DNA from: Minisyncoccota bacterium
GTDB lineage: Bacteria > Patescibacteriota > Minisyncoccia > Phycocordibacterales > UBA9973
Reading direction: 5' to 3'
Assembly (NCBI GenBank): GCA_017991915.1
Contig: JAGOPQ010000001.1
Location: 1 to 62,414 of the forward strand
Length of the DNA: 62,414 nt
Below are positions 7,880-57,690 of the stretch, piece by piece. The notes below the pieces were generated by a model. It made no database searches. It saw only the letters and a program-made list of their open reading frames with translations, and had not been told where the DNA came from. Numbering within the stretch: the stretch's first letter is position 1; every line of letters begins with the position of its first letter. The translations under genes and the position numbers were made by a program.

Positions 7880-7904
7880 GTGGGTGGGGAGACGAGAAAG
7901 GCGG

Positions 7905-7963
7905 AGGCGCGACGGCGCCGAGCCGGGGTCGAGCAAATTTTCAGCAGAAAATTATGCGTGACC
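7905..7963 (+). repeat. tRNA-downstream GC-rich structured element, copy 1
   Basis: About 85% identical to 53287-53350. It has two hairpins (GGCGC-GACG-GCGCC and AATTTTC-AGCA-GAAAATT), and both show compensatory changes in the other copy. Confidence 0.75.
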
Positions 7964-7994
7964 GAGTCTCTCCTTTATGTGTTAAAATTCACCA

Positions 7995-22815: not shown

Positions 22816-24963
22816 ATGGAAAGAGACTATCCTTTAGAAAAAGTTCGAAACATTGGAATTATTGCGCACATCGATGCTGGTAAAACTACCACCACTGAAC
22901 GTGTGCTTTTTTATACTGGAGTATCCCACAAGATCGGTGAAGTGCACGATGGAGAAACCACTACCGACTGGATGGAGCAAGAACGAGAACGCGGAATCAC
23001 TATTACTTCTGCGGCAGTTACTTGTTTCTGGACTCCGACTTACGACCTTAAAAACAAAGCTTTAAAACACCGCTTTAACATCATCGATACCCCTGGACAC
23101 ATCGACTTTACCGTAGAGGTGAAGCGTTCTCTTCGCGTACTCGACGGTGCAGTGGTGGTATTTGACGGTGTGGCTGGAGTAGAACCACAATCCGAAACAA
23201 ACTGGAGATACGCCGACGAAGCAAAGGTGCCTCGCGTATGTTTCATCAACAAGCTAGACCGAACTGGTGCATCTTTTGAGCACTCCTTCGCAACAATCCT
23301 AGACAGACTAAACAAGAGTGCAGTGAGAATGCAAATTCCTATTGGCCTTGAAGAAAACTTTGAAGGAGTAGTAGATGTTTTGAAAATGAAGGCTTACTAC
23401 TTTGAAGGTGAGATGGGTAACACTGTTTTAGAAAAAGAAATTCCTGAAAATATGTTGGCTGATGCGCAAAAATATCACGGCATGCTTATCGAAAAGATTG
23501 TCGAGACTGATGATGTCATGATGACTGAATACTTGGATGGAGTAATTCCAAACGTTGATTCACTAAAGAAAGCTCTACGTAAAGCAGTTATTGCAAACCA
23601 AATCTTTCCAGTCTTTGCTGGTTCAGCATTGAAAAACAAAGGTGTACAGCTAGTACTCGACGCGGTGGTTGATTATCTTCCATCTCCATTAGACATCCCA
23701 CCTATCCCTGGAGTAAATCCTGATACAGATGAAGTTATGGTTCGTCATGCTGACGACAAGGAGCCTTTCTCTGCACTTGCTTTCAAGGTGGCTACTGACC
23801 CATTCGTAGGACAGATTATTTTCTTCCGTGTTTATTCTGGAAGTTTGACTGCTGGAAGTTATATTTACAATCCTCGAACTCGAAACAAAGAAAGAATCGG
23901 ACGTATCTTGCGTATGCATGCGAACGACCGAGAAGAAGTGAAGCAAGTTTATGCTGGAGAAATTGCTGCAGCGGTGGGACTAAAAGACACCATCACTTCA
24001 GATACTATCTGCGATGAAAATAGTCCAATAGAATTAAACCGAATCGTTTTCCCTGAACCTGTTATCAACCTTCGAATAGAACCAAAGACCAAAGCTGACC
24101 AAGAAAAAATGGGTATGGCTTTGAACAGACTTGCTCAAGAAGACCCTACTTTCAAAGTTACTACTGACCAAGAAACTGGCGAGACTATCATCGCTGGAAT
24201 GGGAGAGCTACACCTTGAAATCATCGTGGATCGTATGAAGCGAGAGTTCGCAGTGGAAGCTAACGTTGGTAAACCACAAGTGGCTTACCGAGAAACTATC
24301 AATGGTAACTCTGATGCAGAAGGTAAGTACATCAAGCAGTCTGGAGGACGCGGAAACTACGGTCACGTGAAGATCAAGGTCAAGCCGATGGCAATGTTGA
24401 CCAAAGAAGAAGTGGAAGACCTACCAAGGAATACCAAGCGCTCTGAAGGATTTGAATTCATCAACAGCATCAAAGGAGGTGTCATTCCTCAAGAATACAT
24501 CGCTCCTTGTGAAAAAGGATTCAAGGAAGGTTTGGATCGCGGAATTTTGGCTGGATTCAAGATGGTGAATGTTTCTGTAGAACTCTGGGACGGAAGTTAC
24601 CACGAAGTGGACTCAAACGAAATGGCTTTCAAGATCGCAGCTTCTATGGCTATCCAAGATGCATGTAAGCGTGCAAACCCTGTCATCCTAGAACCGATGA
24701 TGAAGGTGGAAGTAGTTACTCCTGAGAAATTCATGGGAGACGTTACTGGAAACTTGTCATCCAAGCGTGGACTTATCGAAGGCATGGAAGATGTGGGTAT
24801 GAACAAAGTTTTGAAAGCTATCGTGCCTCTATCTGAAATGTTCGGATACATGACCGGTCTACGTTCTATGACTGAAGGCCGTGCGTCATTCACAATGGAA
24901 TTCCTAAGATACGATATAGTGCCAAACAACGTAGCGGAAACTATCATCGCGGCAAGAAAATAA
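22816..24963 (+). CDS. fusA: Elongation factor G
   Basis: [18 protein letters not shown]1 motif, DTPGH; 715 aa. Confidence 0.98.
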
Positions 24964-24985
24964 AACCAATACATAAGACACAAAA

Positions 24986-25007
24986 AGCCCTAGAAATAGG
25001 GTTTTTT
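24986..25007 (+). terminator. Intrinsic terminator after fusA
   Basis: CCCTA-GAAA-TAGGG hairpin followed by T6. Confidence 0.7.
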
Positions 25008-25024
25008 GCTGTGTATGGAAGCTA

Positions 25025-25053
25025 TTGACTTTTGTCCTTAAAAGTGCTATTAT
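25025..25053 (+). promoter_or_regulatory. Sigma-70-type promoter driving islet 1 (TTGACT-17-TATTAT with TGC extension)
   Basis: TTGACT 25025-25030 and TATTAT 25048-25053. Confidence 0.6.
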
Positions 25054-25104
25054 ATATAGATATAGTCCGATGGCAATTCCGCCATCCATACAAGGAGATT
25101 TGCC

Positions 25105-25374
25105 GTGTTTTATACGATGATGAAGGCCGAAGTACACGTTCACCAATTCCGCGGGGTGACTGATCTCGGGTTCATGCACAAAGTCCTTCAGGCGGTCGCG
25201 GACTGCCAGAAGGTGAGCCAAAGGAGTGTTCGGATCGTTGAGGTCCCGGCCCTCCCCAATCAGTCGAACTTCGATGTTGAAGTCGACGTGTATGCGGCTG
25301 ATATTTACGGAGAAATGCCGCAATTCAAGGCACTCGAAGTCTTGTTTGCCAAGACTGCCGACGAAATTATCTAG
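25105..25374 (+). CDS. Hypothetical protein, islet 1 (89 aa)
   Basis: GTG start with AAGGAG (25092-25097) 7 nt upstream; G/C-ending codons. No family recognised. Confidence 0.55.
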   Translation: MFYTMMKAEVHVHQFRGVTDLGFMHKVLQAVADCQKVSQRSVRIVEVPALPNQSNFDVEVDVYAADIYGEMPQFKALEVLFAKTADEII

Positions 25375-25568
25375 CGTCGGAGCATATCGGGCTGATGGCA
25401 ATTCCGCCGTCAGCCCATCGAAACCTTAACAAGGAGGATGAAAATCTTACTAGTTAGGGTTTTTATCGTTTTAGGCCAAACTAAAAAACACCAACGGCGA
25501 TGTTGCTGTTGATGCTTTGGTTCTTGCCCGACCCGCGTGTGCGGCAATCGGGGCTTGCGATGTGGCCA

Positions 25569-25832
25569 CTACCAGTAGCGGCGGCTAGCTCTTGAGGAGG
25601 CGAAGAGTTCCTCCGAACGAGCCTCGGACGCCCTGATGGCATCCAGAGCTTTCTGGCGGAGTACTTCAGACTCCTTCGAGCGACGAGCTAGAAGTTCATG
25701 CACTGTGATGCCGAGAGCTTCGGCTGCGCGTGCGTTTTCTTCTCGGCGAGTAAGCTTGTGATCACGCTTCTTCTTGCTTGCCCGTACTTGGTTGGGCGTG
25801 GACATGTGAGCTTTGTTCTGAGCATGCCTCAT
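25569..25832 (-). CDS. Hypothetical basic protein, islet 1 (87 aa; possible HTH ...AAEALGITVHELLARR...)
   Basis: ATG 25832 with GGAG 10 nt upstream; a GTG at 25862 is an alternative. GC3-skewed. Confidence 0.5.
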   Translation of the reverse strand: MRHAQNKAHMSTPNQVRASKKKRDHKLTRREENARAAEALGITVHELLARRSKESEVLRQKALDAIRASEARSEELFASSRASRRYW

Positions 25833-25846
25833 GAGCAGTACTCCGG

Positions 25847-26155
25847 TTAGAGAGGGTGCCACGGGAACGGAACATCACCAAGTGCATCTTCCACGTCGCG
25901 AGTGAGGCGTTCCTGCCGTTCTTCCTCGAGGCGTTCGAGGCGACGTTCCTCACGATCGATGTCGGCCTTGCGCTTTTCGGCAAAGGCGAGACGTTCTCCT
26001 CGACTGCGCTTGTTGATCTTGATGACCTTCTCGCAGGGCACTCCCAGCCCGTCGGCCTTGGTGGCGATAGTGATCCTCTTGACCATATCGGCCTTTTGGC
26101 GTTGGAGGGCAATCATCTGGTGATTCTTCACGGTGACCTCGTTGTTGGGGTACAC
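25847..26155 (-). CDS. Hypothetical charged/coiled-coil protein, islet 1 (102 aa)
   Basis: GTG 26155. Strong G/C bias at codon position 3 in this frame only; the other overlapping frames look like antisense artefacts. Confidence 0.55.
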   Translation of the reverse strand: MYPNNEVTVKNHQMIALQRQKADMVKRITIATKADGLGVPCEKVIKINKRSRGERLAFAEKRKADIDREERRLERLEEERQERLTRDVEDALGDVPFPWHPL

Positions 26156-26191
26156 TACTTTCGTAGATTAGACTATCACTAGTTTGTATAT

Positions 26192-26219
26192 TTGACAATG
26201 TTTTAAAATCTGCTAACAT
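26192..26219 (+). promoter_or_regulatory. Promoter restarting tuf (TTGACA-16-TAACAT, TGC extension)
   Basis: TTGACA 26192-26197 and TAACAT 26214-26219. A hairpin plus T-run at 26226-26246 starts at the predicted +1. Confidence 0.55.
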
Positions 26220-26371
26220 AGTAGCAACTGCACTTTTGCGGTTTTTCTATTGCTAATTTTTCAAAAAAGCTAGTAAATAGACCTTTATTAAGTTATTAAT
26301 ATCGTTAGTAATTAAGCCTTAGCGACTGGTTCTCGTACGTTAAGTTTTAACTATTAGCACAATATAATTAT

Positions 26372-27565
26372 ATGGCAGAAGAATTTAAGAGAGATAAGCC
26401 GCACGTTAACGTCGGCACCATCGGTCACGTTGACCATGGAAAAACTACATTAACAGCAGCTATCCTCCATGTGTTAAACATGGCTGGAAAGACAGTTCGT
26501 CTAAAGGATGTTAGTCAAATCGACAACGCTCCTGAAGAAAAGGCTCGTGGTATTACTATCAACATCTCCCACAACGAGTACGCTACTGACGCTCGTCACT
26601 ACGCACACATCGACGCTCCAGGACACGCTGACTACATCAAGAACATGATTACTGGTGCCGCTCAAATGGACGGTGCTATTCTGGTGGTTGCCGCTACTGA
26701 CGGTGCGATGCCACAAACTCGTGAGCACGTTTTGCTTGCGAAGCAAGTTGGTGTTCCAAAGATCATCGTTTTCCTAAACAAATGCGACATGGTTGATGAT
26801 AAAGACATGATCGACCTAGTTGAAGAAGAAATCCGTGAATTGCTTACAAAACAAGGCTTTGATGGCGCTGGCGCTCCGGTTATCCGTGGTTCAGCTCTTA
26901 AAGCTCTTGAATCAGCTTCAGCCGACGACGAGTGGGCAAAGAAGGTTCTTGAACTTACCAACGCGCTTGATACCTATATTCCTGTCCCAGAACGAGATAT
27001 TACAAAACCTTTCCTTATGCCTGTTGAAGACATATTCTCTATCGAAGGCCGTGGAACAGTTGTAACAGGAAAGATTGAAAGAGGAGTAGTAAAGGTAGGA
27101 GAAGAAATTGAAATCGTTGGAATCAAGGCTACTCAAAAGTCTACAGTTACTGGTATTGAAATGTTCAACAAGAACCTTCAAGAAGGTATGGCTGGAGACA
27201 ACGCTGGAATTCTTCTACGAGGTCTTAAGAAAGAAGACATCACTCGTGGTCAAGTTCTATGTAAGCCAGGAACAACTACTCCACACGACAATTTCACAGC
27301 TGAAATCTATGTTTTGAAGAAGGAAGAAGGTGGACGTCACACTCCATTCTTCAAGGGTTACAAGCCTCAATTCTACATCCGAACTACGGACGTGACTGGA
27401 GATGTTACTCTTGCTGAAGGTACTGAGATGGTTATGCCAGGAGACACAACCAAGATTACTGTTAAACTGGTCACCCCAGTAGCGCTTGAGGAGTCTCAGA
27501 AGTTCGCTATTCGTGAAGGAGGCAAGACTGTCGGCGCCGGAGTTGTTACTAAGATCCTAGGCTAA
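26372..27565 (+). CDS. tuf: Elongation factor Tu
   Basis: [18 protein letters not shown] and NKCD motifs; 397 aa. Confidence 0.99.
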
Positions 27566-27619
27566 AACAAAAAAGTATCAGTTAATTTGCTCATTTTCAA
27601 CTAGTTATATCGTAATCCC

Positions 27620-28006
27620 ATGGTAACCAAAGAAACCAAAGAAATAAAGACGAAGAAAGCGACATCAGCAAAGAAGGTTGCTAAAGAGAAGCAGGATGGA
27701 AAAGTAGTCCTACGTATTCGAGTTCGCGCTTACGAGAGCAAGATTTTGGATGCGTCTGTCAAACAAATCATCGATACTGCAATACGATATGATGCTGAAG
27801 TTGTTGGGCCAGTTCCACTACCAACAGAGATAAAGAAATACACGGTAAACCGCGCTTCTTTCATCTACAAAAATACACGAGAACAATTTGAAATCAGAGT
27901 GCACAAGAGATTGATAGATATTATCAATCCAAATGCTAAAACGGTTGAATCGCTTACTAACTTATCCCTTCCTTCTGGCGTCGATATTGACGTGAAGATG
28001 CTGTAA
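27620..28006 (+). CDS. rpsJ: 30S ribosomal protein S10 (with Lys-rich N-terminal extension)
   Basis: RIRVRAYESKILD...GPVPLPT core. Confidence 0.95.
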   Translation: MVTKETKEIKTKKATSAKKVAKEKQDGKVVLRIRVRAYESKILDASVKQIIDTAIRYDAEVVGPVPLPTEIKKYTVNRASFIYKNTREQFEIRVHKRLIDIINPNAKTVESLTNLSLPSGVDIDVKML

Positions 28007-28016
28007 TTAAAACGCC

Positions 28017-28634
28017 ATGACTAAATTCATTCTCGCAACAAAAGAGAATATGATGGAGTATTTCTCTCCCGAAGGAGTGGTATTTCCTGTAACGATTTTA
28101 TCCGCTGGACCTGTCACTGTGACTCGCGTATTTGAGAAATCAAAGGACGGTTACAATGCAGTTCAAGTTGGTTTCGGTACTCAAAAGAAAGAAAGAATCA
28201 GCAAAGCTAAACTCGGCCAAATGAAAGGTGCTCAATATCGAGTTCTAAAAGAATTCCGATTGAAGCCTACAGATGAGAGTTCTGCTAAAGAAGGAGATGT
28301 CATTGATGTTTCAGTTTTTGCTCCAGGGGACAAGCTCCAAGTTTCTGGTACTTCAAAAGGTAAAGGTTTCCAAGGTGTTGTAAAGCGCCATGGTTTTGCC
28401 GGAGGTCCAAGAACACACGGACAGAAGCACTCTGAGCGTGAACCAGGATCTATCGGTGGAGGTCTACGTACACACGTGCCAAAGGGAATGAGAATGGCCG
28501 GCCGAATGGGATCAGACCGAATAACTCAAAAGAATTTGAAAGTTGTTGCAGTAGATGTAGAGAACAATCTACTATTAGTCGAAGGCGCAATTCCCGGAGT
28601 TCGCGGAAGTTTAGTTGAAATCTTCAGTAGATAA
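28017..28634 (+). CDS. rplC: 50S ribosomal protein L3
   Basis: GTSKGKGFQGVVKRHGF motif. Confidence 0.97.
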   Translation: MTKFILATKENMMEYFSPEGVVFPVTILSAGPVTVTRVFEKSKDGYNAVQVGFGTQKKERISKAKLGQMKGAQYRVLKEFRLKPTDESSAKEGDVIDVSVFAPGDKLQVSGTSKGKGFQGVVKRHGFAGGPRTHGQKHSEREPGSIGGGLRTHVPKGMRMAGRMGSDRITQKNLKVVAVDVENNLLLVEGAIPGVRGSLVEIFSR

Positions 28635-28642
28635 TAAATAAT

Positions 28643-29302
28643 ATGGAAGCAAAAGTATACAACCAAAAAGGAAAGGAGTCTGGAACAATAAATCTTCCGG
28701 CAAAAGTTTTTGCTGCGAAGTGGCGTGCAGACCTAGTTCACCAAGTAGTAGAAGGAATGCGCTCAAACAAGCGTTCTGGAACAGCTGATACCAAAGATCG
28801 CGGAGAAGTTCGCGGTGGAGGTAAGAAGCCTTGGAAACAAAAGGGAACAGGACGAGCTCGTCACGGTTCTTCTCGTTCTCCTATCTGGGTTGGTGGAGGT
28901 GTTACTCACGGTCCACTTGCAGAAAAGAACTACAAGCGCAAAATTTCTAAATCAATGCGTGCTCAAGCTTTATTCTCAGTACTTTCCAAGAAGATGAAAG
29001 ACGGTGAAATCCTTTTTGTGGATTCTCTGGATATGCCTGCAATCAAAACCAAAGATGCAGCTGAAGTCATGAAGAGCTTGTCCAAAGCTACAGGTTGGAA
29101 GCCACTAGCCGGATCCAAGAAGCCTCGTGTTTTGACTGCGCTTTATGGACGAAGTGAAAAGGCAGAAAAGAGTTTCCGAAACTTACCACAACTAGAGATG
29201 GTGTTCCTAAAGAACTTGAATCCACTAGATGTGCTATCTTACCAATACCTTTTGATCGAAAACGGAGAGGAGAGTGTGAAGTTCTTAGCATCTAGAGGTT
29301 AA
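28643..29302 (+). CDS. rplD: 50S ribosomal protein L4
   Basis: KPWKQKGTGRARHGS motif. Confidence 0.97.
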   Translation: MEAKVYNQKGKESGTINLPAKVFAAKWRADLVHQVVEGMRSNKRSGTADTKDRGEVRGGGKKPWKQKGTGRARHGSSRSPIWVGGGVTHGPLAEKNYKRKISKSMRAQALFSVLSKKMKDGEILFVDSLDMPAIKTKDAAEVMKSLSKATGWKPLAGSKKPRVLTALYGRSEKAEKSFRNLPQLEMVFLKNLNPLDVLSYQYLLIENGEESVKFLASRG

Positions 29303-29321
29303 TTGCAAATAATTTTTTGAT

Positions 29322-29594
29322 ATGAAAACAGACATCATAAAAAATGGAAGAATAACAGAGAAAGCAGCGACTGCTATGGAGAACAATACCTACGTTTTCA
29401 ACGTGGCTCCAAATGCAAACAAGACTGAAATCAAAAAGGCCATTTTTGCTCTGTACAAAGTAAAGCCAACCAAGGTAAACGTACTACGCGTACCAAAGAA
29501 AAATACATCCCTACGTGGCAAGCCAGGCACCAAGGGTGGTGGTAGAAAGGCAGTAGTATATTTGAAAAAGGGAGACAAGATTGAACTTATTTAA
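29322..29594 (+). CDS. rplW: 50S ribosomal protein L23
   Basis: ITEKA...YVF.V...ANKTEIKKA pattern; position matches the S10 operon order. Confidence 0.95.
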   Translation: MKTDIIKNGRITEKAATAMENNTYVFNVAPNANKTEIKKAIFALYKVKPTKVNVLRVPKKNTSLRGKPGTKGGGRKAVVYLKKGDKIELI

Positions 29595-29603
29595 TAGTAA
29601 ATT

Positions 29604-29665
29604 AGGCCCTAGGCCCTAGGCACTAGCAAAAAATGCTAAAGCCTAAAGCCTAAAGCCTAAAGCCT
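29604..29665 (+). repeat. Heptad-periodic hairpin repeat, copy B, immediately 5' of rplB
   Basis: AGGCCCTAGGCCCTAGGCACTAGC-A6-TGCTAAAGCCTAAAGCCTAAAGCCTAAAGCCT. It matches the reverse complement of 1355-1422. Confidence 0.8.
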
Positions 29666-29671
29666 AACACA

Positions 29672-30520
29672 ATGAAATCATACAAACCTACAAGTAAATC
29701 CCGAAGACAAATGACCAACGTGACTTATCACGGGGTTTTGACCAAGACTGAACCTACCAAGTCTCTGACTCGTGGATTCCGTCGTGCCGTCGGAAGAAAC
29801 AGCCAAGGACGCATCACTACTCGCCACAAAGGAGGAGGACACAAGAGACTTCTTCGCGACGTAGATTTTCTATACGACAAAAAAGATATCCCAGCTACTA
29901 TCAAAAGTATCGAGTACGATCCAAACCGTTCTGCATTCATCGGTCTTGCTGTATATAAAGATGGAGAGAAGCGATATGTAGTTCTACCAGGAGCAGTAAA
30001 GCCAGGAGCTACTTTTATAGTTTCTGAAAAAGCTCCACTTACAGCTGGAAACAGACTACCACTAAGAAATATTCCAGTTGGAACATTTGTTTACAATATT
30101 GAAATCAAGCCAAGAGGTGGTGCCAAGATCGGACGCTCTGCCGGAATCTTTGCTCAAGTTGTGGCAAATGCAGATGGCTACACAAATTTGAAAATGCCTT
30201 CAACAGAAATCCGAAAAATTTCTGAAGAGTGTTACGCATGTATCGGAGTTGTTTCTAATGACGAACATCACCTAGAGAACTACGGAAAGGCAGGACGAAG
30301 TCGCTGGAAGGGTATACGTCCTACAGTTCGTGGTACTGCCATGAACCCAGTAGACCACCCATACGGAGGAGGTGAAGGCCGACAAGGACGAGGAACCAAG
30401 CGCCCAAAGACTATGTGGGGTAAGGTTACCGGAGGACGAAAGACACGAACTCCAAAGAAGTACTCAAACGTATTTATCGTGTCCAGACGCCGAACTGGCA
30501 AGAACCGCAAGTCTTCATAA
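29672..30520 (+). CDS. rplB: 50S ribosomal protein L2
   Basis: GRNSQGRITTRHKGGGHKR and GTAMNPVDHPYGGGEG motifs. Confidence 0.98.
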   Translation: MKSYKPTSKSRRQMTNVTYHGVLTKTEPTKSLTRGFRRAVGRNSQGRITTRHKGGGHKRLLRDVDFLYDKKDIPATIKSIEYDPNRSAFIGLAVYKDGEKRYVVLPGAVKPGATFIVSEKAPLTAGNRLPLRNIPVGTFVYNIEIKPRGGAKIGRSAGIFAQVVANADGYTNLKMPSTEIRKISEECYACIGVVSNDEHHLENYGKAGRSRWKGIRPTVRGTAMNPVDHPYGGGEGRQGRGTKRPKTMWGKVTGGRKTRTPKKYSNVFIVSRRRTGKNRKSS

Positions 30521-30550
30521 TCTCCTTATTTTATATAGGTTTTCAGCACA

Positions 30551-30575
30551 AAAAGGTCAATTTATTGACTTTTTT
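30551..30575 (+). terminator. Hairpin/T-run after rplB, overlapping the islet-2 promoter -35
   Basis: AAAAGGTCAA-TTTA-TTGACTTTTT. Confidence 0.5.
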
Positions 30576-30593
30576 GTCTTTTTATGCTAGTAT
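30565..30593 (+). promoter_or_regulatory. Promoter driving islet 2 (TTGACT-17-TAGTAT, TGC extension)
   Basis: TTGACT 30565-30570 and TAGTAT 30588-30593. Closely resembles the islet-1 entry promoter. Confidence 0.55.
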
Positions 30594-30644
30594 ATATATT
30601 AGTAAGCAGTACATCGTCATTTACCCAAGCCTTCGGGAGAGGCT

Positions 30645-30878
30645 ATGTCTCGCATTACTGACAAGTATTGTGGCAATTGCAAGAAAACCAAGCCCCACTT
30701 TGACAATCGGTGCGTCGAATGCCGTCCACCAAGGTGGAATGCAGGCGAAGACAAAGATGTGAATTGTTCCCCCGTAGTTCGCACAGGGCGATGTGGTGAA
30801 CATGGCCGACGTGTTGTCGAGCCAGTCGAATTCATCGACGGGAAGAGTCGCGGTGCTGGTGAACATCTGCAGTACTAA
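30645..30878 (+). CDS. Hypothetical zinc-ribbon protein, islet 2 (77 aa)
   Basis: CGNC...CVEC plus further Cys/His; GGGAGAGG SD 2 nt upstream of the ATG. Confidence 0.5.
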   Translation: MSRITDKYCGNCKKTKPHFDNRCVECRPPRWNAGEDKDVNCSPVVRTGRCGEHGRRVVEPVEFIDGKSRGAGEHLQY

Positions 30879-30923
30879 GCATTCTCAGCAGGACCACCTT
30901 TCCACGCAGGGAGAAAAAAAGAG

Positions 30924-31223
30924 ATGAAGCTTAAGATGGCGCCACCGACTTCGCCAACCCGTGAGGCCACTCGCGAAGAGGTGCTATCTCTCACTGAGCG
31001 CGCTCTCAAGCGCCTTGGTGTCCCAAGTCCACGCTGGAAGGCACGTCAGGCCATCGGCAAAGTGGTGTTCCCGCAGAAGTATGGAATGGCAACATTCCAT
31101 GCAGTCTGCCGGGAGTTCCTTGATCGGGGGTACGAAGTTCCCGATTATGAGTCACCCACAATGCTGGAGAGGGTTGTGGAACACATCGCCGAGAACGCAC
31201 CCGAGACAGTGTCCTGGGTGTGA
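30924..31223 (+). CDS. Hypothetical protein, islet 2 (99 aa)
   Basis: GGGAG upstream; an alternative ATG at 30936. GC3-skewed. No family recognised. Confidence 0.5.
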   Translation: MKLKMAPPTSPTREATREEVLSLTERALKRLGVPSPRWKARQAIGKVVFPQKYGMATFHAVCREFLDRGYEVPDYESPTMLERVVEHIAENAPETVSWV

Positions 31224-31282
31224 GGTCTCAATGGCTGACCGATAGGTTCGCCACGTGACGAAAGTCACAAACATCAAAGACG

Positions 31283-31318
31283 GGGGTAGCCAATATCGGT
31301 TACCCCTTTCATCGTTTT
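31283..31318 (+). terminator. Intrinsic terminator closing islet 2
   Basis: GGGGTAGCC-AATATC-GGTTACCCC hairpin followed by TTTCATCGTTTT. Confidence 0.65.
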
Positions 31319-31320
31319 AT

Positions 31321-31348
31321 TTGACATTCGCCCTGAATTTGCTAGTAT
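31321..31348 (+). promoter_or_regulatory. Promoter restarting rpsS (TTGACA-16-TAGTAT, TGC extension)
   Basis: TTGACA 31321-31326 and TAGTAT 31343-31348. A hairpin plus T-run at 31355-31380 starts at the predicted +1. Confidence 0.55.
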
Positions 31349-31389
31349 GTTGTGAGGCTCAATCGAGAGCCTTTTGTTTACTTTATTTT

Positions 31390-31737
31390 ATGACAAGATC
31401 AATCAAAAAAGGCCTAAACGTTGACGAGCGTCTACTCAAAAAGATTGCCGGCAAAAACCCGCTTCAAACTCCAATGATAAAGACTTGGAAGAGAGCGTGT
31501 CAGATTTCACCTGAAATGTTGGGCTTTACTTTTGGCGTTTACAACGGAAAAGTTCACGTTGAAGTTTTGGTTACTGAAGACATGGTAGGTCACCGACTTG
31601 GAGAATTTTCACCAACCAAGAAATTCATGAAACACGGAGGAAAGATGCAGAAGGAGCTTGAACAAAAGAAGAAAGAAGCTGAAATAACACAGGCCAAGTC
31701 TGCGACAGCTGCAGCAGGAGACGCCAAGAAGAAATAA
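31390..31737 (+). CDS. rpsS: 30S ribosomal protein S19 (with K/E/A-rich C-terminal extension)
   Basis: MTRSIKKG...IKTWKR...GKVHV...MVGHRLGEFSPTKKF. ATG 31390 was chosen; the upstream part of the ORF is spurious. Confidence 0.95.
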   Translation: MTRSIKKGLNVDERLLKKIAGKNPLQTPMIKTWKRACQISPEMLGFTFGVYNGKVHVEVLVTEDMVGHRLGEFSPTKKFMKHGGKMQKELEQKKKEAEITQAKSATAAAGDAKKK

Positions 31738-34985: not shown

Positions 34986-34997
34986 GATAAGAGTCGT

Positions 34998-35026
34998 TTG
35001 ACTATTATGGGTAAATTTGTTAGTAT
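34998..35026 (+). promoter_or_regulatory. Possible internal promoter upstream of rpsN (TTGACT-17-TAGTAT)
   Basis: Lies in an unusually long (155-nt) rplE-rpsN spacer. Confidence 0.4.
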
Positions 35027-35141
35027 TTGGTTAAGGGAAACAGACCTCAGCTAATCCACTTTTCTCCTTTAGGTCCTTGTTTAAAAGGGTTTAAAGAAAA
35101 AAAGTGAGACATTACGAGGCACTCCCAAAGAATTTTTATAT

Positions 35142-35327
35142 ATGGCAAAAACATCAGTTATAGCAAGAAACAATAAGAAGCATAAGTTTAGTACTCGACA
35201 GAAAAATCGATGCTTTCGCTGTGGCCGAGGAAATGGCTTTATGCGAGATTTCGGTCTATGCCGTATATGTTTTAGAGAATTAGCAAACGAGGGAATGCTT
35301 CCGGGCGTTAGAAAGTCTTCTTGGTAA
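35142..35327 (+). CDS. rpsN: 30S ribosomal protein S14, type Z (zinc-binding)
   Basis: 61 aa with CFRCGR...CRICFRE. Confidence 0.95.
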
Positions 35328-49965: not shown

Positions 49966-50349
49966 GGGGATGCAAGGCATAGACAGTTGGCCTACTTGTA
50001 TCTGATGCATACCGAGTATGGGCGTAATCTCGTAAAAATTCGCCCAACAGCTTAATTGCAAAATTAGCTTCCAAAGTTACTTCTCCATACTTCGGTATGA
50101 AGGATCTAACTCCAGCTTTCGCTTTAGCTTAAGCCGGTGTCTGCCTCATAGACTTCCGATATATGAGGTTAGGCATAATATTATCGGGATAAGGAATTGC
50201 CCGCTCGAGCATTTCACGAAAACTTAGAGCTCGATTAAAAAATATTTGGCTCGCTTAATAATTTTTTAATTTAAACCACCAAGCGTGCTAAGTATGTAGA
50301 CTTCGATGCAATAACCTTCTGCACACGAGTTCAATTCTCGTCATCTCCA
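49966..50349 (+). ncRNA. ssrA: tmRNA (SsrA)
   Basis: 5' GGGGATG pairs with 3' CATCTCC, including a G3:U pair. T arm ACGAG-TTCAATT-CTCGT. Candidate tag ORF at 50058-50132, ending ...FALA-stop. Located directly after smpB. Confidence 0.88.
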
Positions 50350-50409
50350 CACAAATTTTTATTTTCTAAAATATTTTAAATTTTAGGTTTTTTGTGGTAT
50401 CATTGCACT

Positions 50410-57469: not shown

Positions 57470-57529
57470 ATGGGGTAGTTTGCAAATTTTATAAATGGGT
57501 ATATCATATAAAAGTGCTTAACAATTAAA

Positions 57530-57690
57530 TAATTCATATTTGGGGAAGCGAGGTGAAAATCCTCCACAGTGCCGCTACGGTAATCCTTTAAAAAGGAAAG
57601 TCCGATTACCAATTATGAATGAAGTCCCGAGCAGGAATAGAGTAAACGCACGTGCGCACTCCATTATCCCCTCGGAAGGGGATTTTTTAT
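57530..57690 (+). promoter_or_regulatory. Cobalamin (AdoCbl) riboswitch with terminator expression platform
   Basis: GGGGAAGCGAGGTGAAAATCCTCCACAGTGCCGCTACGGTAA core, B12-box-like GAAAGTCCGATTACC, and terminator ATCCCC-TCGGAA-GGGGAT plus T6 at 57665-57690. Confidence 0.75.

Follow-up and report, generated by a model that had tools for sequence, protein, structure and literature searches.

Morons, as reportedly described by Hendrix and colleagues, are independent promoter-gene-terminator units that lie between adjacent genes of conserved phage operons. Here we describe an insert of comparable layout between rplB (L2) and rpsS (S19) in a 62,414-bp contig of a metagenome-assembled genome (MAG). 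We refer to this contig, at its full length, as the window; all coordinates are positions in it, and its ribosomal cluster lies on the plus strand. The S10/spc cluster is a textbook case of conserved gene order, and the adjacency of rplB and rpsS is nearly universal. We propose that the insert is probably an insulated, moron-like, strain-variable accessory transcription unit at a natural, recombination-permissive operon boundary of the ribosomal cluster of Paceibacteria, members of the Candidate Phyla Radiation (CPR).

The resemblance to a moron lies in a predicted promoter and terminator of its own, in a position between genes that are adjacent in relatives, in a deviant base composition (G+C fraction 0.54 against 0.41–0.43 around it), and in small, orphan, strain-specific content. 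However, the insert is located in a bacterial chromosome, within a ribosomal-protein cluster, and not in a phage or prophage; it occupies an operon boundary that existed already and has a native promoter on the downstream side, and the ends of its alleles are conserved while the body has diverged. An identification as a prophage remnant was rejected, as the flanks are str/S10/spc ribosomal genes and there is no phage similarity.

Three other kinds of locus are also close to it in some respects. Flexible genomic islets occupy a fixed site between core genes, vary in content between strains, and can have that content swapped by homologous recombination in their flanks. The insert shares with them the fixed core-gene position, the strain-varying content and the lack of any need for an element-encoded recombinase, but such inserts are very small (0.4–1.4 kb), lie in the most conserved gene cluster, and are GC-rich in an AT-rich genome, and each unit is predicted to be a complete insulated transcription unit. 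In hypervariable loci that encode cognate pairs, such as the Staphylococcus aureus agr specificity groups, the toxin-immunity pairs of colicins and contact-dependent inhibition (CDI) systems, and the lambdoid immunity regions, flanks and control regions are conserved and coding sequences are unalignable, whereas gene number, order and sizes are kept. The same holds here, although no member of those families was detected and the resemblance is one of variation pattern only. Integron cassettes are promoterless, end in attC and reside beside an intI/attI platform. Like them, the units described here are small, mostly orphan, diverse and in places stacked at one site (loci L012 and L161 below), but each has its own predicted promoter and an ordinary intrinsic terminator. 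Because of these features, together with a GNRA hairpin at the 3' end and no long imperfect palindrome, we rejected the integron cassette as an identity; no attC-like site or integrase was seen, with the limit that attC core motifs were not specifically sought and the rest of the contig was not annotated gene by gene.

What appears to be new is the location in the ribosomal cluster, the orphan content, which is GC-rich and structured, and the contrast between conserved ends and hyperdivergent body. A literature search on CPR ribosomal operon insertions or hypervariable intergenic sites returned nothing relevant.

The rplB–rpsS insert and its predicted signals

The plus-strand gene order is rpsL-rpsG-fusA-(islet 1)-tuf-rpsJ-rplC-rplD-rplW-rplB-(islet 2)-rpsS-rplV-rpsC and on to secY, where islet 2 is the insert considered here. 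The closest relatives of the contig are Patescibacteria/"Nomurabacteria" MAGs. On the left, rplB (29672–30520) is a 282-aa open reading frame (ORF) with 97% identity to the L2 of a sister contig that has Pfam Ribosomal_L2_N/C; on the right, rpsS (31390–31737; NCBI MBP6883647.1, "Candidatus Pacebacteria bacterium") encodes a protein identical in the sister loci L002 and L003 introduced below. Between the rplB stop codon (30518–30520) and the rpsS ATG (31390) there is a gap of 869 bp (30521–31389). A first-pass annotation of this DNA had put the separation at 870 bp and described a GC-rich core with one line of about 62% G+C; two 60-nt lines, at 30960 and 31020, both have a G+C fraction of 0.62. 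The core as a whole (30617–31311) is 54.2% G+C against 40.6% for the contig, and the 2 kb on either side are at 0.41–0.43.

The insert is real. A second NCBI record, contig JAHZTN010681875.1 (1119 bp) of assembly GCA_020047435.1, equals window positions 30471–31589 except for four single-nucleotide polymorphisms (SNPs), all of which are outside the cassette, and the neighbouring rplD-rplW-rplB genes are found on another contig of that assembly. Since this record carries the insert and both junctions, an assembly chimera is very unlikely.

The core contains two ORFs on the plus strand, separated by 45 nt and co-directional, between one predicted promoter and one predicted terminator. The first, ORF77 (30645–30878; 77 aa), is preceded by a Shine-Dalgarno (SD) sequence (GGGAGAGG) and encodes an orphan small protein that looks like a zinc knuckle or ribbon, with a CxxC-x10-CxxC arrangement formed by C9-x2-C12 and C23-x2-C26. 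The second, ORF99 (30924–31223; 99 aa; SD AGGGAGA, with an alternative start at 30936 giving MAPP...), encodes an orphan protein for which three helices are predicted. When the core was shuffled 3000 times by dinucleotides, 3.8% of the shuffles contained two sense ORFs of 77 aa or longer that do not overlap, 0.07% contained such a pair with an SD-like motif for both members, and 0.13% contained an ORF of 50 aa or more bearing CxxC..CxxC. G+C at the three codon positions is coding-like in ORF99 (0.64/0.47/0.62) and more weakly so in ORF77 (0.59/0.47/0.49). Because of the shuffle test and the codon-position composition, we regard ORF77 and ORF99 as probable genes.

Neither ORF has a family match in Pfam, PHROGs, PADLOC or NCBIfam, and the other five reading frames of the core gave nothing in Pfam. 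Each protein forms a one-member cluster among approximately 15 billion proteins, and a word-indexed search of 5.8 billion proteins returned the query itself only. A full HMMER search with ORF99 against 1.84 billion representatives recovered ORF99 and one other protein, P0003 (1211 aa, with repeats and a LIM domain; E 1.6e-5), which we rejected as a homolog, as its E-value is the sum of seven short repeat matches. Scans of phage and plasmid collections (blastn and tblastn) and of IMG/VR with the cassette gave nothing, PDB sequences contained no match to the cassette proteins, and a Foldseek comparison with PDB structures yielded nothing below an E-value of 1. The models searched were single-sequence AlphaFold2 (AF2) predictions, which show three helices for ORF99 at a predicted local distance difference test (pLDDT) score of 57.5 and reach only 41 for ORF77, unusable for checking a zinc-ribbon fold. 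By eye, from the sequence, the stretch "LKRLGVPSPRWKARQ" in ORF99 resembles a helix-turn-helix. The first-pass annotation's description of two SD-led ORFs without a recognisable family, the first of them with paired cysteines as in zinc ribbons, is thus upheld, whereas the homologs it proposed looking for were found neither in relatives nor in the protein collections.

The signals around these ORFs were called in silico, by consensus and by folding, with folding z-scores taken against dinucleotide shuffles. Directly 3' of rplB, an AT-rich 13-bp hairpin followed by a T-run (30548–30577, plus strand; -14.8 kcal/mol, z -4.7), terminator-like in a scan, is the likely terminator of rplB. Within its descending arm lies the -35 element of the predicted sigma-70-type entry promoter TTGACT-17-TAGTAT (30565–30593), which matches consensus at 9 of 12 positions and has an extended -10 (TGC). 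The 5' untranslated region (UTR) with its SD sequence spans 30600–30644. At the other end, folding predicts two 3'-UTR hairpins (31232–31268), the second of which is the GNRA-capped GTGAC-GAAA-GTCAC (31255–31268), and then a terminator (31282–31319) made of a 10-bp GC-rich hairpin (31282–31307) and a U-rich tail; the predicted folding energy of the 97-nt 3' region is -38.3 kcal/mol (z -6.4). The terminator hairpin was not listed by a simple scan because its U-run is interrupted (UUUCAUCGUUUUAUUU). The cassette is followed by a promoter, TTGACA-16-TAGTAT (31321–31348; 10 of 12 consensus positions and TG), and by a leader hairpin with a U-run (31354–31373), both belonging to rpsS as judged by comparison with relatives. 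The hairpin 3' of rplB, the entry promoter, the GNRA hairpin between the last ORF and the terminator, and the cassette's own strong terminator had all been proposed in the first-pass annotation, and each is present; the predicted signals, together with the G+C content, likewise bear out its picture of a self-contained transcription unit of atypical composition.

Sister alleles and variable junctions

The locus is also present in a sister strain, on JGI contig Ga0502775_0001893 (L002 and L004), and in Logan assembly SRR30710957 (L003). The flanks of L002/L004 are approximately 90% identical to the window at the nucleotide level, and the S19 and EF-Tu proteins are identical. At the rplB–rpsS junction, L002 has an 87-aa ORF (C-x-H..C-x2-C) and a 101-aa ORF that differ from those of the window, and L003 has a third version of the second gene (L003_116). 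The architecture is the same in the window and L002, a Cys/His-knuckle protein followed by a protein of about 100 aa ending in ..APE, and the promoter, the 5' UTR with its SD sequence, the first codons, the GNRA hairpin and the terminator tail are kept, but the coding regions are unalignable. BLAST homology with the sister contig ends at 30616 and restarts at 31312.

The conservation of the ends can be followed in detail. The hairpin 3' of rplB is identical in L002, and the entry promoter is conserved base for base in spite of the different coding content downstream. The 5' ends align through the SD sequence into the first codons (window ATGTCTCG, L002 ATGTGTCG). At the equivalent of the GNRA hairpin L002 and L003 have GTGGC-GTAA-GCCAC, with one compensatory change from A-T to G-C and the GNRA loop kept, and the 3' module (the GNRA hairpin, the motif AACcATCAnAG and the tail TTTCnCGTTTTATTTGAC) can be aligned among the window, L002, L003, L085 and L099. 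Within the body, ORF99 and the 101-aa protein of L002 show a weak collinear similarity (26% identity over 87 aa; Smith-Waterman shuffle p 0.004), and BLASTP of ORF99 against L003_116 gave nothing. As far as the alignments indicate, conserved control elements around hyperdivergent or replaced bodies are the reverse of the pattern produced by neutral divergence. Sliding identity between the window and L002 is slightly raised near the junction (95–98% in the rplB 3' end and rpsS); a recent recombination tract was considered as the reason and rejected, as these are the most conserved parts anyway.

Loci around relatives of the L2 gene were retrieved, 80 from genomes and 80 from metagenomes; the cassette comparisons span 168 related loci. 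We surveyed 24 junctions of the cluster in the 55 loci whose L2 is at least 82% identical. Of these junctions 20 are tight, with a median of 70 bp or less, and only four vary: rpsG–fusA (median 140 bp, maximum 3504 bp), fusA–tuf (1161 and 5298 bp), rplB–rpsS (491 and 7337 bp, with a minimum of about 0) and rplE–rpsN (324 and 2192 bp). The rplB–rpsS gap is 0–150 bp outside the clade and about 0 to 9.7 kb inside it. Fills longer than 300 bp occupy this junction in 26 of 41 loci and, when GC-rich is defined as at least 0.05 above the rest of the locus, 14 of the 26 are GC-rich (window, L002, L085, L086, L087, L092, L093, L096, L099, L102, L138, L012, L013 and L016). Three further fills (L094, L161 and L119) are less GC-enriched (+0.03 to +0.09), and L165 has a comparable unit in a fill that is not enriched as a whole (0.39 against 0.37). 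The fills measure 0.4–1.4 kb and consist of one to four units, each with an AT-rich promoter, a 5' hairpin or SD sequence, a small ORF and a strong terminator; several units are in tandem in L012 and L161, the two in L012 having the same 40-nt promoter block. The SD-led ORFs in relatives are mostly 19–100 aa and very basic (net charge +7 to +15).

The rplB–rpsS gap is 57–158 bp in L088, L006, L017, L015, L091, L107, L095, L106 and L110, and about 120 bp in five of these (L006, L017, L015, L091 and L107), in keeping with the first-pass statement that rplB and rpsS are normally adjacent. The terminator hairpin of rplB, a single promoter (TTGACa..TTTGCTAnTAT) and the leader hairpin AGCUC-loop-GAGCU-UUUU are all that these five empty sites contain, while every filled site has an additional promoter. 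The rpsS promoter and leader are conserved in approximately 45 relatives, whether their site is filled or empty. In this clade the S10 operon is therefore split naturally at rplB–rpsS, irrespective of cargo, and the exit promoter, which had been read as a part of the cassette that restarts rpsS, is instead native to rpsS. In the window the leader hairpin is the variant AGGCUC..GAGCCU, with no SD sequence before the rpsS ATG, and the leader (31349–31389) could, judging from its sequence, be an attenuator or a ribosomal-protein autoregulatory leader. The exact rpsS-promoter sequence had no match in a metagenome contig collection, which therefore does not contain this species.

More distant relatives have ordinary genes of native G+C in the same junction: a diacylglycerol-kinase-like (dgkA-like) gene in 10 loci and, elsewhere, proC-proB-proA with VIT1, a Mur ligase, an aminotransferase or a 1439-aa surface protein. 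No cassette body is common to two loci at the DNA or protein level among 17 GC-rich cassettes; compared with the rest of the window and with the 168 loci, the window cassette matches nothing but the duplicate record, and all-against-all phmmer and blastp of the cassette proteins found no link for the window ORFs. The only cross-species cassette family detected joins L085_100 and L086_67 (Smith-Waterman z 10.7), and hhalign of this pair against ORF99, L002_101 and L003_116 gave a probability of 0.3%. In that family the C-terminal 60 aa of the 100-aa protein of L085 (1000–1302) align with the 67-aa protein of L086 (7093–7296), with a motif GMxA(V/I)IA(H/R)VV. On these comparisons the conserved feature is the site and not the cassette, the junction being a general synteny break of the clade.

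Some further elements of these junctions recur between species. A conserved 5' module heads otherwise unrelated cassettes in four species (L094 6880–6950, L138 6920–6980, L096 7010–7070 and L102 6880–6970) and comprises a promoter (TTGCaTTATTT..TATAA), a 5' hairpin that begins with GGAyCT..GCTCTTT and the SD sequence CAGAAAGG. Directly 3' of rplB in three species (L012 10850–10920, L096 6900–7000 and L138 6850–6940) are the GC-rich palindromic motifs CCCCTTGTCAGGGG, CCCCTGATAAGGGG and AAAGGGGGTTGTATT, which look like a small structured element or one akin to repetitive extragenic palindromic (REP) sequences. GC-rich islets also lie 5' of tuf (L004, L086, L096, L018, L090 and L102) and at rplE–rpsN (L091); in the window the rplE–rpsN spacer (34986–35141) has its own predicted extended -10 promoter (34998–35026) ahead of rpsN (35142–35327; 61 aa, zinc type).

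The sister variable site of the window, islet 1, lies between fusA and tuf (24964–26371), with G+C up to 0.59. The first-pass annotation held that islet 1 mirrors islet 2. This stands insofar as the layout recurs at fusA–tuf and at the same junctions in many relatives, but two of the islet-1 genes are on the minus strand. The corresponding site of the sister strain (L004) has other minus-strand genes and lacks the entry promoter and ORF89; apart from a 106-bp piece (25457–25561), which is kept, its islet differs. The small basic minus-strand proteins (25569–26155 in the window, 4253–4724 in L004) are unalignable between strains, and all four share a helix-turn-helix-like stretch, LG(I/V)(T/P)xxxL.A(K/R), with no family match. 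A hairpin, GATGGCAATTCCGCC(A/G)TC, occurs twice in islet 1 (25069–25086 and 25389–25416), each time just 5' of an SD sequence, and its second copy precedes a 24-aa ORF (25438–25512) whose product, hydrophobic at first and basic thereafter (MKILLVRVFIVLGQTKKHQRRCCC), resembles a type I toxin.

Elsewhere in the window, the rplW–rplB spacer contains a block of short tandem repeats (29600–29667; TAGGCCC twice and AAAGCCT four times) that form an imperfect inverted repeat and are missing from L002. An AdoCbl-II (cobalamin) riboswitch (57526–57619) and a transfer-messenger RNA (tmRNA; 49966–50352) both exceed the Rfam gathering score, and a very GC-rich stretch of approximately 90 nt (7880–7965) lies 3' of the tRNA-Leu terminator and has no convincing ORF.

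Alternative explanations

The insert might be recent foreign DNA that has entered a permissive site from a GC-richer donor such as a phage, a plasmid, a host bacterium or a GC-rich relative within the Paceibacteria. The contrast between the core and the genome (0.54 against 0.41) and the orphan ORFs would fit such an origin, and some clade members do have a G+C fraction of 0.52–0.54 (L015, L048 and L052). However, searches of phage, plasmid and IMG/VR collections, with DNA as well as protein, and of the sets of 5.8 and 1.84 billion proteins revealed no homolog, and the promoter is AT-rich and host-like. The SD sequence, 5' UTR and 3' module are common to the sister allele, and the whole unit is therefore not one foreign block. 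We consider this origin unlikely, although of the alternatives it fares best.

The first-pass annotation had suggested a family of elements, that is, self-mobilising insulated cassettes that carry their own entry promoter and terminator and insert at translation-gene junctions. Its observation that the entry promoters of islets 1 and 2 are alike is well founded: the pattern TTGACTTTT-N8-14-TGCTANTAT has two matches in the 62-kb window, where none is expected, and they are precisely the two entry promoters (25025–25053 and 30565–30593). A closely similar promoter heads the L087 cassette, the islet-1 promoter and ORF89 appear to come and go jointly (both are in the window and missing in L004), and the additional promoter of every filled site and the shared promoter block of the tandem L012 units would also suit a mobile unit. 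In addition, CATCGT occurs only twice in 30500–31400, at 30612 and 31310, exactly at both homology breaks, a placement that is possibly coincidental. Nevertheless, neither a recombinase or transposase nor inverted repeats or att-like ends were found, and no cassette was encountered a second time in the window, the 168 loci, IMG/VR, or the phage or plasmid collections. The entry promoter of islet 2 recurs unchanged in a strain whose coding content differs and thus behaves like a component of the site; the exit promoter is native to rpsS, and other relatives have ordinary housekeeping genes at the same junction. Homologous, mobile elements are therefore not supported, and we think this explanation rather improbable.

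About as improbable, in our view, is that the insert is mainly a structured non-coding or dual-function RNA whose ORFs are secondary or spurious. Where a genome is AT-rich, an intergenic GC-rich island that has a promoter and a terminator of its own is the classic signature of a structured RNA. The predicted transcript folds far better than its shuffles (z -6.0 for the whole; for the coding part, -4.8 in the sense and -2.8 in the antisense direction), the L002 allele, a chain of near-perfect hairpins, reaches -7 to -13, and the host ribosomal genes do not behave in this way (-1.8 to +0.5). Because of this excess folding, a structured or dual-function RNA stays a live rival, and the compensatory change that retains the GNRA hairpin also favours it. 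On the other side, the z-scores of other GC-rich cassettes (-0.9 to -11.8) overlap those of AT-rich fills used as controls (-0.5 to -3.5), the bodies of the alleles are not conserved in sequence, and the codon-position composition is coding-like. Two SD-led ORFs that occupy 77% of the core would be unexpected by chance (p ~0.0007), as would the CxxC pair (p ~0.001). A known RNA family was rejected: nothing reaches the Rfam 15 gathering threshold, and nothing relevant appears at E<=1 within 24900–31500.

Small zinc-ribbon proteins are common among ribosomal proteins, and the ORFs might thus encode lineage-specific, ribosome-associated proteins beside the ribosomal genes, an idea that the location and the small, basic cassette ORFs of relatives would suit. 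Against it, the ORFs are not conserved even between strains with 90% nucleotide identity, those of the window have net charges of only +4 and +2, and no ribosomal family matches them, so that we regard it as very unlikely.

Several other identities were considered. The small, closely spaced, co-directional genes under one predicted promoter have the layout of a type II toxin-antitoxin module, but no known toxin or antitoxin family or fold matches them. A REP or bacterial interspersed mosaic element (BIME) or a miniature inverted-repeat transposable element (MITE) was rejected, as the cassette matches only itself in the window and the 168 loci, and a target of a diversity-generating retroelement was rejected, as no part of the cassette has a second copy in the 62-kb window, a reverse transcriptase not having been specifically sought. 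A group II intron and an rRNA fragment were considered and dropped as well.

Finally, conserved ribosomal genes are known places of chimeric joins in metagenome assemblies and the contig is MAG-derived with just such flanks, but the second record, with its SNPs outside the insert only, the recurrence of the layout in at least 14 independent assemblies, and host-type promoter, SD and terminator signals in the correct order leave an assembly or binning artefact with practically no probability.

Proposed model and its implications

We return to the proposal of an insulated, strain-variable unit at an operon boundary. Because rplB has its own terminator and rpsS its own promoter and leader, the DNA between them need not be read through. 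In this model the cassette would be transcribed independently of both genes, and the terminators on either side would insulate it, so that the stoichiometry of the ribosomal proteins is left undisturbed. Its content would turn over through homologous recombination, for which the conserved end modules (promoter and terminator) and the ribosomal genes on either side, themselves very conserved, are the likely substrates, with no dedicated recombinase involved. The alleles of the window, L002 and L003 would then be hyperdivergent versions of one two-gene module. A plausible, if doubtful, guess is that the products form a cognate interacting pair, toxin- and antidote-like or regulator and partner, under diversifying selection; such selection on a cognate pair would cause the coding regions to diverge and the control regions not to. 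We hold the structural part of this proposal somewhat more firmly than the proposal as a whole, and the functional assignment much less so.

A number of observations weigh against the proposal. The similarity of ORF99 to the 101-aa protein of L002 is not significant by BLASTP (E 0.36), and ORF77 shows no similarity to the 87-aa protein, so the coding body may have been swapped for unrelated DNA. That none of the 17 GC-rich cassettes is found in two loci is a poor fit to simple exchange from a common pool. The G+C excess (+0.13) is without a demonstrated cause, and the folding of the coding-region mRNA (z -4.8) is not predicted by a model in which the products are a protein pair. The cassette promoters and terminators are putative, being consensus and folding predictions, and the region has scarcely more promoter-like sites than expected (16, against 10.3 +/- 3.1). 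Pfam, NCBIfam, PADLOC, PHROGs, the PDB and Foldseek gave no family or structural support for any function.

Notwithstanding these points, a broader scenario can be drawn, although we put it forward as speculative and on balance unlikely. Paceibacteria might keep "expression slots" (rpsG–fusA, fusA–tuf, rplB–rpsS and rplE–rpsN) that hold a very large repertoire of non-overlapping, GC-rich, highly structured and insulated mini-operons of orphan small proteins, often very basic or zinc-binding. The conserved control modules and hyperdivergent bodies would in that case reflect targeted diversification or an arms race between cognate partners, for example between episymbiont and host or with phage, in which the most conserved genes of the cell serve as recombination anchors.

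A CPR clade has thus made rplB–rpsS and two or three other junctions of the cluster variable sites and, in the sub-clade of the window, these are filled by strain-specific GC-rich units without relatives among approximately 15 billion proteins. Concatenations of ribosomal proteins and synteny-based binning of CPR genomes should expect such interruptions. Should the units be functional, episymbiotic organisms with tiny genomes would have in them a compact supply of new small proteins or RNAs, and the contrast between conserved ends and a hyperdivergent body would be a sign of strong diversifying selection.

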